Positions 54,854 through 58,172 of a stretch of DNA of 58,172 nt are shown here, one piece after another. Every line of letters starts with the position of its first letter. Position 1 is the first letter of the stretch. The notes under the pieces were generated by a model that had not been told where the DNA came from, searched no databases, and saw nothing but the letters and a program-made list of their open reading frames with translations. The position numbers were made by a program, and so were the translations under genes. The DNA lies in the IMG/VR virus record IMGVR_UViG_3300028610_000686, positions 1 to 58,172 of that record; one strand, 5' to 3'. This DNA is from a virus. Taxonomy: Duplodnaviria > Caudoviricetes.

Positions 54854-55054
54854 TTATTTTCCCGCTAATTCATCCAAGCTGCATTCAAGAACTTCACTCA
54901 TTTTAATGAGAAGATCTACATTCGGCTTAGACACTCCTCTCTCATATTTACTCACCTGCCCTATTTTAATTCCAATTAATTTACCAAACTCAGGTTGAGT
55001 TAATCCTTTACGTTTCCTTAGTAATAGCAAATTTTCTTTAAATATCCCTTTCAT
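54854..55054 (-). CDS. XRE-family HTH regulator (repressor-like)
   Basis: FKENLLLLRKRKGLTQPEFGKLIG..VSKYERGVSKPN..LECSLDEL. Confidence 0.9.
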   Translation of the reverse strand: MKGIFKENLLLLRKRKGLTQPEFGKLIGIKIGQVSKYERGVSKPNVDLLIKMSEVLECSLDELAGK

Positions 55055-55122
55055 AATTACCTTTATAAATAATGTTGTTTATGTTATTGACAGTAACAGT
55101 TTGATTATTATAAAGTCAAGTT

Positions 55123-55166
55123 AAACTGAAATTACATAAGGGTAAAACTGAAATTACATAAGGGTA
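55123..55166 (+). repeat. 22-bp perfect tandem duplication AAACTGAAATTACATAAGGGTA x2
   Basis: Read directly; includes the RBS of the gene at 55170. Confidence 0.9.
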
Positions 55167-55169
55167 AAA

Positions 55170-56159
55170 ATGATAAACAAAATAAAACAACACATAAAAG
55201 ATTTCGACAAGTTGAATATAATATTTCTAACCAAATTTGGTTCCCATTTATACGGGACCGATTCGGAATCATCCGATATTGATATTAAAGGCGTATTTCT
55301 CCCGACGACTGAACAGTGCTTTCTAAACGAAATTCCAAAATCACTTTCTTATTCATCTGGAAAAGATGACTCGAAAAATTCCAGTGATGATATTGATATC
55401 GAACTGTACTCACTGCATTATTATCTCAAGTTGCTGCAAAAAGGGGATACCGGCGCAATCGATATGTTGCACGCTCCAATGGCTGTTATTATACAAACAA
55501 GCGAGTTATGGGAGCAATTACATGATGATAGGAGAGAATTCTATACTACAAATCTCAGCGCATTCGTTGGCTATTGCAGGACACAGGCGAGCAAGTACGG
55601 AATAAAAGGGAGTCGTCTGAGTGATGCTAAAAAAGTACTTGACTATTTAGAACCTTTTAAAGATGAAGAAAATTCTCGAAAATTATTTGAAATATGGGAT
55701 AGTTTACCAACTGGGGAACATATACATAAAATCCCATCTAATCCTGAATTGAGAATTGATCACCCCATGTATCAAGTCTGTGGTAGAAAACTGCAATCAA
55801 CCGTGCCAATTTGGAGGGCTTATGGGTGCATTAATCATTTTTATCAAGAATACGGCAAACGAGCCAAACTAGCAGCGGAGAACAAGGGGATTAACTGGAA
55901 AGCCGTTAGTCATGCAATTCGTTGTGCATTCGAAATGCACTCGATTTATTCACAGGGAGGTCTCACATTTCCATTACGCCAAGCAGATTATATCAAAATG
56001 GTGAAAAACGGCGAACGTGATTATAAAGCCGTTGCTGAGAATCTTGAAACATTAATGGATCAGGTTGAAAACCTGGCAGCAAATTCGAAATATCCTAAAA
56101 AAGTGGATATGAAAAAATGGAATGATTGGTTAATCGATATTTACAGAAATCATGAATAA
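55170..56159 (+). CDS. Pol-beta-superfamily nucleotidyltransferase (T4 NrdC.11/RlaP-like)
   Basis: FGSHLYGTDSESSDIDIKGVFLP, GYCRTQASKYGIKGSRL, NWKAVSHAIR. Confidence 0.85.
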   Translation: MINKIKQHIKDFDKLNIIFLTKFGSHLYGTDSESSDIDIKGVFLPTTEQCFLNEIPKSLSYSSGKDDSKNSSDDIDIELYSLHYYLKLLQKGDTGAIDMLHAPMAVIIQTSELWEQLHDDRREFYTTNLSAFVGYCRTQASKYGIKGSRLSDAKKVLDYLEPFKDEENSRKLFEIWDSLPTGEHIHKIPSNPELRIDHPMYQVCGRKLQSTVPIWRAYGCINHFYQEYGKRAKLAAENKGINWKAVSHAIRCAFEMHSIYSQGGLTFPLRQADYIKMVKNGERDYKAVAENLETLMDQVENLAANSKYPKKVDMKKWNDWLIDIYRNHE

Positions 56160-56557: not shown

Positions 56558-56587
56558 TTGACATATTAAGAACATTATAAATATACT
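56558..56587 (+). promoter_or_regulatory. Promoter of the RHH / pentamer-array / RAMP operon
   Basis: TTGACA-18 nt-TATACT; the ATG follows 6 nt after the -10 box (leaderless-like). Confidence 0.6.
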
Positions 56588-56593
56588 ATAAAC

Positions 56594-56758
56594 ATGAAAA
56601 CAAAAACCATAATGGTCATGGTGACCGAGGATTTTAAAGAAAGGGTTCGAAAAGCTGCCAATCATGACAATAAAAGCTTGAGTGCTTATGTTATCGATTG
56701 CTTGCTTGTTGATCTCAAAAAACGAAAGGTTGAAAATATTAAATCTTTCAGTAAGTGA
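56594..56758 (+). CDS. Ribbon-helix-helix (Arc/CopG-like) regulator, 54 aa, below the ORF-track cutoff
   Basis: MKTKTIMVMVTEDFKERVRKAANHDNKSLSAYVIDCLLVDLKKRKVENIKSFSK. Confidence 0.7.
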   Translation: MKTKTIMVMVTEDFKERVRKAANHDNKSLSAYVIDCLLVDLKKRKVENIKSFSK

Positions 56759-56763
56759 AAACC

Positions 56764-56863
56764 GGCCAGGCAAGACGAGACATGGCGGGTCAAGGTGCGA
56801 CTTGGTCAGACTGAACCGGACAGGACAACGCACGATTCGACGAGTCAATTCAAGGCAAGATTT
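56764..56863 (+). ncRNA. Pentamer-periodic array 1 (17 x GDY-NN plus conserved tail), candidate guide RNA
   Basis: ggcca ggcaa gacga gacat ggcgg gtcaa ggtgc gactt ggtca gactg aaccg gacag gacaa cgcac gattc gacga gtcaa | ttcaaggcaagattt. Confidence 0.8.
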
Positions 56864-56886
56864 TTTAAACAATCAGGAGAAAAAAC

Positions 56887-57378
56887 ATGGATCAATCATT
56901 ATTTGAATTAAACGTTGATACACAAATCCTTTTTGATCGGCTTTCGACAATGAAAAAAGGTGATTTCATAGCTTACGAAACTTTGACTGATCTGATCAAA
57001 AAGAACGTTCAGATAGAAGGATATCGATATCTTTATACAGCCAGAAATATGATGCGCAAAATGCACGGCATTGTAATCGATGTAATCGAAAACGAAGGCT
57101 TAAGAGCTTTAACCGATGAAGAAAACATTGCATTGACCGGCAAAAGAGCTTTGAAAGGAATCCGTAACAAAGCGAAACTAGCAGCCTCGAAAATCACAAA
57201 GATTGATGATTTCAGCAAATTGAGCGATGAATCAAAAATCAAACACAATGCCCACCTTGGAATTTTCCAAATATTCATTGCAAACACCAGCAAGAAAAGG
57301 ATTGAAAAAGTTGAGAACAAGGTGGCTGAAACTGGTGAAAAATTGCCGATGAATGGTATTTTGGAATTGTTTAAGTGA
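56887..57378 (+). CDS. Unknown protein between pentamer arrays 1 and 2
   Basis: AGGAG RBS; 163 aa; array 2 starts 9 nt after the stop. Confidence 0.75.
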   Translation: MDQSLFELNVDTQILFDRLSTMKKGDFIAYETLTDLIKKNVQIEGYRYLYTARNMMRKMHGIVIDVIENEGLRALTDEENIALTGKRALKGIRNKAKLAASKITKIDDFSKLSDESKIKHNAHLGIFQIFIANTSKKRIEKVENKVAETGEKLPMNGILELFK

Positions 57379-57386
57379 TTATCCAG

Positions 57387-57455
57387 GGTGAGGCGTGGTT
57401 AGACAAGTCGTGATGAGTTGAGACAAGACGCGACAATTCAAGACAAGGATTAAAA
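57387..57455 (+). ncRNA. Pentamer-periodic array 2 (10 x GDY-NN plus conserved tail)
   Basis: ggtga ggcgt ggtta gacaa gtcgt gatga gttga gacaa gacgc gacaa | ttcaagacaaggattaaaa. Confidence 0.8.
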
Positions 57456-57482
57456 TGGGGGAAACTTATGATTTAAAAACAA

Positions 57483-57556
57483 GACGTGACCAGACCTGGA
57501 GAGACGCGGCATGATGGGATGCGGCAAGACGGGACAATTCAAGGCAAGGATTAAAA
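57483..57556 (+). ncRNA. Pentamer-periodic array 3 (11 x GRY-NN plus conserved tail)
   Basis: gacgt gacca gacct ggaga gacgc ggcat gatgg gatgc ggcaa gacgg gacaa | ttcaaggcaaggattaaaa. Confidence 0.8.
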
Positions 57557-57591
57557 CAAAACAATTCAAAACATTAAAATCAGGGGATTTT

Positions 57592-58152
57592 ATGAAAGTA
57601 GCAACAGTACAACTAAAAAGCATGGCTTCGTATTCACAGGGTCGATACCATGATACCGAAAAACTTAACAAAGAAAGCCACGCAGATTATGAAGAAAGAA
57701 CATGGAGAAACAAACTGCACGTAAACAAAGACGGATTTGTATTCATTCCGGCGATGGCTTTTAAAAATTGCATTTCGGAGTGTGCAAAATATCTGAGTAT
57801 TCAGATACCAGGAAAAGGGAAAGCGACGTATACAAAACATTTTGACGCCGGTGTTATTGTCAGTGATGCTTTAGTTCTGGATACCAAGGCGGAAGATGTT
57901 GAATGTGAAAGACTATTCATCCCGAATCCGGGGACAACCTCAAGAGTTAAAAAATCGTTTCCAATTATTCATGAATGGAGTGGCGAAGTTAAGTTTTTCA
58001 TTCTTGACGAAACGATAACAGAAAAAGTTTTTACTGACCACTTAAAGCAAGCCGGTCAGTTTATTGGAATCGGAAGATGGCGCCCGAGAAATCGTGGATT
58101 ATACGGACGTTTTACCGTTGAAAGTGTTGATTTTGCACCTTATGAAATTTGA
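57592..58152 (+). CDS. Stand-alone RAMP/Cas7(Csm3)-like protein, 186 aa (Vipr-like candidate)
   Basis: N-terminal strand VQLKSMAS, VFIPAMAFKNCI (compare IPGSSxKG in RAMPs), C-terminal Gly-rich loop AGQFIGIGRWRPRNRGLYGRFTV. Start reassigned to the ATG after GGGG because the longer ORF runs through array 3. Confidence 0.7.
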   Translation: MKVATVQLKSMASYSQGRYHDTEKLNKESHADYEERTWRNKLHVNKDGFVFIPAMAFKNCISECAKYLSIQIPGKGKATYTKHFDAGVIVSDALVLDTKAEDVECERLFIPNPGTTSRVKKSFPIIHEWSGEVKFFILDETITEKVFTDHLKQAGQFIGIGRWRPRNRGLYGRFTVESVDFAPYEI

Positions 58153-58172
58153 TGTGGGGTTGATAGGCAGGT

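Follow-up and report, generated by a model that had tools for sequence, protein, structure and literature searches.

The end of this viral record very probably carries the VIPR system (Viral Interference Programmable Repeat) of a phage, organized as one operon. VIPR systems, only months old as a class, are RNA-guided DNA binders that use a non-contiguous code. The class was first described in 2026 as a CRISPR-related DNA-silencing device, with 667 loci in seven types (I-VII) in the original report (10.64898/2026.04.26.720920). Its loci are minimal and mostly viral or proviral, and its type II exemplar is the system of Escherichia phage SUSP1, with papers on its structures (10.64898/2026.04.26.720927) and biology (10.64898/2026.10.15.759431). 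We base our assignment on the arrays, on the fold of the effector and its homology to a Vipr that has been characterised, on the joint occurrence of arrays, vipr and vap throughout the family, and on the phage context. The sequence-only reading of this DNA had already suggested a match to VIPR; those systems are indeed in print, and by sequence the 186-aa protein is homologous to the SUSP1 Vipr, which has been characterised.

The window, by which we mean the whole analysed stretch of 58,172 nt, is a linear IMG/VR virus record estimated to be 81% complete, and it encodes portal, head-morphogenesis and tape-measure proteins (PHROG matches). The nearest cultured-phage matches of the portal protein were ~27% identical. 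The VIPR locus covers ~1.6 kb of the + strand (56558-58172) and comprises three guide arrays, an accessory gene and an effector (Table 1). The arrangement proposed earlier, with a promoter, an RHH gene, the arrays and the 163-aa and 186-aa genes, was found with all parts on the + strand, and the last 3 kb contained as ORFs only an RlaP-like nucleotidyltransferase, small ORFs, the RHH-like ORF, vap and vipr. The absence of cas1/2/3 and of a CRISPR array was also confirmed, as none of the 37 ORFs scanned in the window matched a cas gene and no CRISPR-type repeats, no Cas5/Cas6/Cas10/Cas3 or adaptation genes and no tRNA genes were found in the window.

The promoter candidate was the best among 7 sites in the region, the mean in shuffles being 6.2 sites; since the number of sites is not above that of shuffles, we consider it a consensus match only. 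At the other end the record stops 20 nt past vipr, so that the locus is possibly incomplete. An array directly follows the vipr stop in many relatives, and the final nucleotides may be the start of a further array, as in most relatives, 20 nt being too short to judge.

Table 1. Features of the VIPR locus, in window coordinates
Feature	Coordinates	Strand	Basis
Sigma-70-like promoter candidate	56558..56587	+	TTGACA-18-TATACT, 11/12 consensus matches
RHH-like ORF, 54 aa	56594..56758	+	sub-threshold Pfam match, NikA-like RHH
vrRNA unit 1 TTCAAGGCAAGATTTTTT	56764..56866	+	17 G-N-Y/NN pentamers (56764-56848) + tail
vap-like accessory gene, 163 aa	56887..57378	+	HMM matches adjoining vipr in relatives
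vrRNA unit 2 TTCAAGACAAGGATTAAAA	57387..57455	+	10 pentamers (57387-57436) + tail
vrRNA unit 3 TTCAAGGCAAGGATTAAAA	57483..57556	+	11 pentamers (57483-57537) + tail
vipr, predicted 186-aa single-RRM RAMP (Cas7-like)	57592..58152	+	fold, sequence homology, G-rich loop G159-F174
Final 20 nt of record	58153..58172	+	possible start of a further array (GGCAG GT...)

The effector and its accessory gene

The AF2 model of the 186-aa protein (pLDDT 95.9, pTM 0.89) was searched against known structures. The best Foldseek match in the PDB was the type VII Cas7 8yhe_E (E 2.8e-8), followed by Csm3, Cmr and gRAMP, and 140 PDB chains were found at E <= 1e-3, the matches listed being CRISPR RAMPs. A VIA all-against-all search gave CRISPR RAMPs at all ranks from 1 to 26, with Z 11.0-11.8 for the best ones, and the top match was Csm3 9g9a_D (Z 11.8, rmsd 3.7, 155 aligned). 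AF2, Foldseek and VIA thus agree with the RAMP/RRM fold that had been anticipated from two motifs, both of which are present (I52-P53-x4-K58 and G159-I-G-R-W-R-P-R-N-R-G-L-Y-G-R-F174), and on its model the protein is a single-domain RAMP of the Cas7/Csm3 type. Neither this protein nor the 163-aa protein was matched by Pfam or PADLOC. The stored gene call (P0001) is 213 aa long, starting at 57511 and reading through array 3; we favoured the start at 57592 because relatives are mostly 185 aa.

Cas7, Csm3 and Cmr4 backbone subunits polymerise along guide RNA at a fixed period. Window Vipr shares with this class 1 CRISPR backbone (type VII Cas7, Csm3, Cmr4) the RRM core, the G-rich loop and the thumb, with 6-18% identity in structural alignments. 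Unlike class 1 CRISPR systems, the window has no CRISPR array, partner cas genes (Cas5, Cas10/Cas14, Cas6) or adaptation genes, and the period is 5 nt, with 3 bases hidden in VIPR, instead of 6 nt with 1 flipped.

A tblastn search of a 2.3-Gb phage collection with the 186-aa protein matched SUSP1 (KT454805.2, E 1e-5) in a 195-aa gene that lies ahead of a 146-aa gene and has GGY arrays on both sides. Direct comparison of window Vipr and SUSP1 Vipr gave E 1e-12 over aa 116-177 by BLASTP and 97.7% (E 1.9e-12, 168 columns) by profile-sequence hhalign, and phrog_4652 is common to both (9.2e-14 for the window, 1.4e-96 for SUSP1). Judging from these alignments, the homology of window Vipr to SUSP1 Vipr, for which experiments exist, extends along the whole protein. 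The SUSP1 translation agrees with the residues K33, E71, M72, R138, C173, D177, W178 and R179 of the cryo-EM preprint, the exception being T175, which reads V in the translation.

The overall fold, the aligned thumb and the G-loop are retained in window Vipr. SUSP1 R179 aligns with the invariant R164, while R138 corresponds to F123, which is nearly invariant in the branch of window Vipr, and D177 corresponds to R162. SUSP1 H17 has no aligned counterpart, and an insertion makes the G-loop 4 residues longer than in SUSP1. In the structural paper, R179 stacks on Y3, R138 forms a salt bridge with G2 and H17 reads G1 (10.64898/2026.04.26.720927). The preservation of R179 (as R164) and the replacement of R138 (by F123) fit with arrays that keep a pyrimidine at position 3 but leave position 2 free. 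The insertion in the G-loop and the missing counterpart of H17 suggest that RNA recognition differs in detail from SUSP1, and the 1-nt-skip rule of SUSP1 might not carry over to the window system.

Like the SUSP1 VIPR, the locus combines a phage-borne, lone, small single-RRM RAMP, which is a sequence homologue, with an adjoining small accessory gene, no cas genes or CRISPR array, and several vrRNA units, each made of 10-17 pentamers (fixed triplet plus free dinucleotide) that run into a constant tail at the 3' end. Differences concern the triplet, which is GGY in SUSP1, as well as the tail (pseudoknotted in SUSP1, short and with no pseudoknot predicted here) and the position of the arrays, one upstream and three downstream in SUSP1 and between every gene in the window.

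The accessory gene also differs, as it lies upstream of vipr, an order shared with 6 of 76 relatives, and has no detectable kinship to SUSP1 vap1 (hhalign probability 6.6%, no reliable homology). The model of the 163-aa protein (pLDDT 93.1) has an N-terminal winged helix (~aa 7-75) and a helical hairpin (~aa 76-151). Its structural matches were weak (PurR 1o57, Z 7.8; MarR/GntR/ScpB, TM 0.38-0.45), and it also matched weakly to viral "hypothetical protein" clusters. These weak matches suggest that the helper is a winged-helix-like protein from a viral family without a name. The predicted complex of Vipr with the 163-aa protein scored 0.00 against a mark of 0.32. For the 54-aa ORF, the Pfam match to NikA-like RHH (E 1.7e-4) reached 22.1 bits, under the 27-bit cut-off. 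The RHH gene noted earlier is not a conserved part of the system, since this ORF had no tblastn match at E <= 1e-3 in 90 fetched related loci; it is probably the phage's own small regulator, outside the conserved VIPR core.

Guide arrays and their linkage to vipr

We recounted the repeats and obtained exactly the numbers reported from the first inspection, namely 38 pentamers in three in-phase arrays, with G at position 1 in 36 of 38 and a pyrimidine at position 3 in 37 of 38. The triplet was G-N-Y in 35 pentamers and GGY in only 10, the full set being GAC 17, GGC 6, GGT 4, GAT 4, GTC 3 and four others (AAC, CGC, GTT, GGA). Information along the pentamer was 1.65, 0.68, 1.05, 0.22 and 0.21 bits for positions 1 to 5, and position 2 was mixed inside single arrays (A 22, G 12, T 4). 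In each array the pattern is confined to one of the five phases. We scanned the window for tracts of ten in-phase pentamers of which at least 8 fit G..Y. Only these three arrays came up on the + strand, and on the - strand only array 1 was echoed. In 20 shuffled versions of the window no such tract arose.

A feature left unmentioned in the first inspection is the common 3' tail of all three arrays, (G[AT]CAA) TTCAA GRCAA G(G)ATT. Likewise unmentioned there, unit 3 is a copy of unit 2, in register and with 78% identity, 101 nt apart. Folding of arrays and tails gave z-scores close to 0, with no stable structure predicted for the tails (z -0.42 to 1.14), and no Rfam family was matched in six loci (the window end and five relatives), therefore showing no hammerhead-type spacers there.

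Published vrRNAs consist of ~9-16 tandem pentamers with fixed GGY and hypervariable NN (10.64898/2026.04.26.720920), although the VIPR papers allow "a related consensus" (NNNGG, YNNNG, NNNNG). A genomic language model has found 21 clusters (6,318 sequences) of 5-nt arrays beside Vipr-like folds with non-GGY triplets, and GAC/NN and CAC/NN are named there among the non-canonical VIPR repeats (10.64898/2026.10.21.760802). The claim of a GAC-dominated variant was thus right in that the arrays are GAC-dominated and non-GGY, but this is not the first sighting of such repeats. The triplets of that paper were also seen among the relatives of window Vipr; unlike its motifs, which are computational, cluster-level and have GAC fixed, position 2 of the window is mixed A/G/T. 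From sequence, the non-GGY triplet sets the locus apart from the canonical VIPR form, not from the family.

We also looked at relatives, for which 90 related loci (620,565 bp) were fetched and linkage was counted over 87. The sequence-only reading had suggested testing the flanks of homologues, and in 85 of 87 loci 5-nt periodic tracts do occur no more than 1.5 kb from the vipr homologue, at a density of 1.46 per kb in this range versus 0.034 per kb further away, a 43-fold difference. By HMM, 76 of 87 loci have a homologue of the 163-aa gene adjoining vipr, and it shares the strand of vipr every time. Six closely related prophages differ from one another in the arrays themselves or in the presence or absence of complete cassettes, and the sequences between arrays are conserved. 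Homologues occur in MAGs from many phyla.

Proposed mechanism, rival readings and target searches

From the VIPR papers we infer array transcription and processing, the filament, the 1-nt skip, silencing and the kind of target (10.64898/2026.04.26.720920, 10.64898/2026.04.26.720927). Besides Vipr, the operon would encode three vrRNAs and a vap-like accessory protein with a winged helix. By homology with SUSP1, each pentamer of the transcript would be bound by one Vipr protomer, giving a helical filament in which the fixed triplet (G-N-Y, mostly GAC) would be flipped out and held between neighbouring protomers, leaving the free dinucleotides, 10-17 per RNA, displayed for pairing with double-stranded DNA. 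The DNA target would carry the same dinucleotides with one skipped base between each, and binding would silence its transcription. The most likely target would be a gene carried by a competing phage, satellite or prophage that shares the host, and the helper would probably contribute DNA binding.

The alternative that survives best, improbable as we consider it, is a filament of the VIPR family with a readout other than that of SUSP1, using another skip, an RNA target or an informative position 2. The low information of position 2 and its mixture within the same arrays are consistent with this, as are the G-loop insertion, the replacement of SUSP1 R138 and D177, and the failure to find a 1-nt-skip target in the window, the fetched loci or the exact scans. 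However, position 2 is uniform in related loci of the same protein family (pure GAC, GTT or GGC) and therefore cannot carry target information in general, and the fold, the aligned thumb and the G-loop are kept. Missing targets are moreover expected, because the scans required exact matches.

Looking for targets, we found none in the window itself at skips 0-3 beyond the maximum of 50 shuffled guides, the best 1-nt-skip scores being 24/34 for array 1, 15/20 for array 2 and 16/22 for array 3, and the 90 fetched loci gave no guide match above shuffled guides. Public collections (viral_contigs, metagenome, genome_contigs) were scanned with exact patterns only. The 10 NN of array 3 gave 0, 6 and 6 matches respectively, where chance predicts ~1 match in 596 Gb for 20 fixed bases; these fell in various genes and frames, mostly in GC-rich DNA. 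Only one of them (L098, GC 0.36) comes near this phage in base composition. It matches in wobble phase within a 349-aa ORF that belongs to no known family, and it was rejected as a target, being indistinguishable from chance. For array 1, NN 1-9 gave 2 matches of one sequence, which extends to only 23/38 positions, NN 9-17 gave 0 matches in the exact scan, and NN 4-14 gave 0 matches in the metagenome and genome collections. The 9 NN of array 2 gave 6 matches, which form three sequence groups. One group falls, in wobble phase, within a DUF1799 tail-chaperone ORF from a GC-rich phage, a second in a frame interrupted by stops and the third in another frame of a real gene. The peptide "DVYNVE" was rejected as independent support for an array 2 target, since the pattern itself dictates it. 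Three guides of the related prophages L005/L006, scanned with exact patterns as a test of the skip rule in this branch, gave 0 matches each.

A second reading, very improbable, takes the arrays as DNA, that is, as iteron-like sites for a winged-helix or RHH protein acting in regulation or partition, with the RAMP unrelated. It would account for a predicted DNA-binding protein being encoded between the arrays and conserved with them, but the same architecture in SUSP1 produces ~100-nt RNAs co-purifying with Vipr (10.64898/2026.04.26.720920). In addition, the arrays accompany the vipr homologue also at loci with no detected vap homologue, and sites for one protein need neither a hypervariable dinucleotide in each unit nor cassette turnover. 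Finally, it is hardly credible that the locus is decaying or orphaned and no longer functions: despite the off-pattern AAC, CGC and GGA pentamers and the truncation of the record directly after vipr, vipr and the 163-aa gene are both intact and full length compared with their homologues, the residues invariant across 43 aligned relatives are all kept in window Vipr, phase and tail are kept in all three arrays, and internal degeneracy is usual for vrRNAs according to the VIPR papers.

Triplet diversity and its possible meaning

The VIPR nature of such loci and GAC/NN repeats are already known, and the new points are small. Single arrays leave the second base of the fixed triplet unconstrained, and the helper, upstream of vipr, is by its model a winged-helix protein of a viral family without a name. 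To our knowledge, VIPR experiments so far all concern GGY-type systems, namely SUSP1 and a Pseudomonas prophage. The general picture of VIPR is unchanged by this locus, which is a compact, complete-looking natural example of an uncharacterised non-GGY branch. It is convenient for asking how much of the scaffold triplet Vipr reads, whether the 1-nt skip holds outside type II, and what the winged-helix helper contributes.

Among 81 typed loci the fixed triplets were GGC, GAC, GTT, GTC, CGC, CAC, CTC, AGT, AAC and ATT, and the Vipr family members of this survey were 38-65% identical to the window protein. Counting distinct proteins, with shared ancestry ignored, the residue aligned with R162 was Arg in 37/37 that go with position-2 G arrays, against 4/18 for A and 5/10 for T; the residue aligned with S15 behaved alike (36/37 for G, 5/18 for A, 6/10 for T), with the same disregard of ancestry. 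Rival elements hijack Vipr via decoy "solo" vrRNAs, as reported in the biology paper (10.64898/2026.10.15.759431). A speculative idea, which we would rather doubt and to which the counts at R162 and S15 are an initial pointer, is an orthogonality code. In it, a changed or relaxed scaffold triplet, combined with a small number of residues in the G-loop and beta-1, would decide whose guides load. Window Vipr keeps R162 and S15, yet position 2 of its arrays is mostly A, so that this protein is possibly relaxed and broad-loading.

Layout of the locus and identity of the Vipr protein

The phage record (58,172 bp, linear, ~81% complete by estimate, G+C ~36%) carries portal, head-morphogenesis and tape-measure genes. 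No close cultured relative was found, the portal being ~27% identical to its nearest match. The promoter-like site stands at the start of the last 1.6 kb, where the RHH-like ORF, the helper gene, the arrays and vipr follow in the order of the table, and 20 nt separate the end of the 186-aa ORF from the end of the record. We favour the 186-aa form of Vipr because its relatives are ~185 aa long and a GGGG ribosome-binding site precedes 57592; the longer start of the stored gene call P0001 begins inside array 3 and is disfavoured.

Features of the phage record and of the VIPR-like locus
Feature	Coordinates	Strand	Remarks
378-aa protein	12395-13531		weak DndC/BrxP (PAPS-reductase-type) matches, E 1.3e-7
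220-aa ORF	43067-43729	-	PADLOC candidate defence family PDC-S22, E 1.9e-29
660-aa SbcC/recombinase-type ATPase	47948-49930		PHROG matches E 1.7e-40 and below; weak LmuB match, 7.3e-9
Cro/CI-type HTH gene	54854-55054	-	divergent from the RlaP-like gene
22-nt tandem repeat	55120-55163		2 copies, 95% identical
RlaP-like nucleotidyltransferase gene	55170-56159
Promoter-like site	start of last 1.6 kb	+	TTGACA-18-TATACT; 11/12 consensus matches
RHH-like ORF	56594-56758	+	54 aa
TAAGTGA region, array 1	56750-56763
Array 1	56764-56848	+	17 pentamers
Helper (vap-like) ORF	56887-57378	+	163 aa
TAAGTGA region, array 2	57370-57386
Array 2	57387-57436	+	10 pentamers
Array 3 leader	57456-57482
Array 3	57483-57537	+	11 pentamers
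vipr	57592-58152	+	186 aa
Alternative vipr start	57511-58152	+	213 aa; disfavoured

No Pfam model was found for the 186-aa protein. AlphaFold, using an alignment of 43 relatives, gave a confident model (pLDDT 95.9, pTM 0.89), whose best Foldseek matches in the PDB were type VII Cas7 and Csm3, Cmr and gRAMP subunits (E from 2.8e-8), with 140 chains matching at E <= 1e-3. In a structure search independent of Foldseek, ranks 1-26 were all CRISPR RAMPs, and Csm3 (9g9a_D) aligned with Z 11.8 and an rmsd of 3.7 A over 155 residues. The RAMP fold that a sequence-only reading had proposed for this gene is thus borne out, with Cas7/Csm3 among the best matches in both searches.

We also searched 50,697 phage records by tblastn and found matches in Escherichia phage SUSP1 and related Felixounavirus/Suspvirus phages (E 1e-5). 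The SUSP1 match is a 195-aa gene upstream of a 146-aa gene, with GGY arrays on either side, and is the vipr of the published vipr-vap1 locus (10.64898/2026.04.26.720920). A profile of 43 sequences aligned with SUSP1 Vipr over 168 columns (97.7% probability, E 1.9e-12), and phrog_4652 was matched by both proteins. At the level of sequence, the 186-aa protein is a homologue of the experimentally studied SUSP1 Vipr. The protein family has 1,110 members at E <= 1e-3, mostly of 185 aa and either called 'hypothetical protein' or nameless.

Pentamer arrays and the conserved core

VIPR was first described in April 2026: Vipr is a minimal RAMP, vrRNAs carry 9-16 GGY/NN repeats and end in an invariant tail, targets are read out through NN pairing with one skipped base, and rival phages and satellites are silenced at the level of transcription; seven types are distinguished, some with another repeat consensus (10.64898/2026.04.26.720920). 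The companion cryo-EM work places one protomer on each repeat (10.64898/2026.04.26.720927). Phage-satellite competition and decoy vrRNAs have been shown (10.64898/2026.10.15.759431), and 21 clusters of non-canonical arrays have been found beside Vipr-like folds, with GAC/NN and CAC/NN named explicitly (10.64898/2026.10.21.760802).

The arrays of the window comprise 38 pentamers in three phase-locked runs, and our recount agreed to the digit with the sequence-only reading: position 1 is G in 36/38 and position 3 a pyrimidine in 37/38, the triplets being GAC (17), GGC (6), GGT (4), GAT (4), GTC (3) and four singletons. GGY accounts for 10/38 units and G-N-Y for 35/38, and the information at positions 1-5 is 1.65, 0.68, 1.05, 0.22 and 0.21 bits. 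A pattern scan of the 58 kb returned these three sites only, and shuffles of the window contained no array-like pentamer tract (0/20). The tail TTCAAGRCAAG(G)ATT is common to the 3' side of all three runs; moreover, units 2 and 3 are in-register copies, with 78% identity across 65 nt.

The heptamer TAAGTGA lies 5-8 nt ahead of the first pentamer of arrays 1 and 2, each time containing the upstream ORF's stop codon, and also 5 nt before vrRNA1 of SUSP1 (L002 ~1945-1955), where there is no annotated gene end. Its recurrence may be chance, or a common start or processing signal. In four related loci (L028, L040, L053, L069), internal arrays are preceded by an A-rich, GAAAyAAAT-like leader 2-3 nt before the first repeat, and the leader of window array 3 (GGGGGAAAC...AAAAACAA) resembles that of L040.

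We then compared 87 loci encoding Vipr relatives (74 viral and 13 genome loci). In line with the expectation that homologues would be flanked by pentamer arrays, a motif-agnostic search found at least one 5-nt periodic tract no more than 1.5 kb from the vipr homologue in 85/87, the others being L080 and L089 (partial). Such tracts numbered 352 in the 241 kb near the gene versus 11 in the 325 kb further off; nine of these 11 lie in L041 and L056, where their pentamer periodicity is like that of the arrays. A homologue of the 163-aa protein was detected by HMM in 76/87 loci, always adjoining vipr on the same strand; it follows vipr in most of them and precedes it in six, the arrangement seen in the window. 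In 3 of the 11 helper-negative loci (L048, L055, L075), the sequence stops no more than 160 nt beyond vipr. The remaining neighbouring ORFs of the window, the RHH-like one included, did not recur in the fetched related loci. Because arrays and vap recur beside vipr and the other neighbours do not, the conserved core is vipr, vap and arrays, which is the published VIPR definition. Six closely related prophages have arrays that are not alike, or that are gained or lost from strain to strain as whole cassettes, with the inter-array sequences conserved.

Those prophages (L005, L006, L008, L010, L042, L067 (3560-4000)) have their arrays split by conserved ~50-nt spacers with a GC-rich hairpin (for example, AGGCTTAGGCCT and GGTTAGGCGAAAGCCTAACC), none of which matches an Rfam family.

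Overall, the fold, the SUSP1 homology and the arrays near relatives support the VIPR-like interpretation first drawn from the sequence, with the locus as a non-canonical VIPR system whose triplets are G-N-Y (GAC-rich). This places it in a known, very recently described class, an identity that will not surprise a specialist.

Triplet recognition and the helper protein

In the SUSP1 structure, H17 and D177 read G1, R138 and W178 hold G2, and Y3 sits in the R179 pocket (10.64898/2026.04.26.720927). In the window protein, R179 corresponds to R164, invariant in 43 relatives, and W178 to W163, whereas R138 is replaced by F123 (nearly invariant) and D177 by R162; H17 falls inside a 12-residue insertion specific to SUSP1, and the window G-loop is four residues longer. 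This alignment would fit a branch in which the position-3 pyrimidine is still caged and the position-2 guanine clamp is gone.

The scaffold triplet varies from locus to locus within the family: the 81 typed loci, not dereplicated, comprise GGC-like 23, CGC-like 21, GAC-like 12, CAC 7, GTT 4, GTC 3, ATT 3, AGT 3, CTC 2, AAC 2 and AGC 1. Across the 65 distinct proteins whose arrays were typed, shared ancestry being uncorrected, the G-loop residue aligned with R162 is Arg in 37/37 with G at position 2, 4/18 with A and 5/10 with T, and the S15 column patterns similarly in the same uncorrected tally. We take the apparent association between R162 and position 2 as a lead only. The most far-reaching interpretation compatible with the data, that the triplets diversified as an orthogonality code, in a contest over who loads whose guides, strikes us as rather unlikely. 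The locus offers a convenient natural construct for finding out how far Vipr reads the scaffold triplet.

The helper model (pLDDT 93.1) combines an N-terminal winged helix (~aa 7-75) with a helical hairpin (~aa 76-151) on its C-terminal side. Its structural matches were weak and generic: PurR 1o57 (Z 7.8), mainly GntR, MarR and OmpR-type DNA-binding domains in Foldseek (E >= 0.03), and MarR, GntR and ScpB clusters in the Atlas (TM 0.38-0.45), the closest clusters being viral 'hypothetical proteins'. No homology to SUSP1 vap1 was detected (6.6% probability). Among published vaps, those of types II, VI and VII are predicted to bind DNA, and some of these resemble winged-helix proteins (10.64898/2026.04.26.720920); the modelled helper fits them by kind.

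Target search and other features of the record

Guides were decoded by the published rule (one skipped base) and then matched. No self-target rose above shuffled guides in the phage, and the VIPR papers likewise describe no self-targeting. The 620 kb of fetched loci yielded no targets, and exact-pattern scans of viral, genome and metagenome collections gave zero matches or a few scattered over unrelated genes and frames. Three guides of related prophages (L005/L006) were likewise blank in exact-pattern scans, which is no evidence against the mechanism. Since 10-11-NN guides are too short for such large collections, where only a perfect match would stand out, and the scans covered exact patterns only, the missing match for the window guides is a blank and equally no evidence against the mechanism. 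In a metagenome contig (L098 601-629, GC 0.36, similar to the phage), 20/20 fixed bases of the array-3 guide were matched, in wobble phase, within a 349-aa ORF that belongs to no known family; this match cannot be told from chance.

Elsewhere in the record, the PDC-S22-like ORF lies on the minus strand among mostly plus-strand genes, and the SbcC/recombinase-type ATPase and the 378-aa protein have the matches listed in the table. Finally, the 22-nt tandem repeat sits between the divergent Cro/CI-type HTH and RlaP-like genes and looks like an operator.
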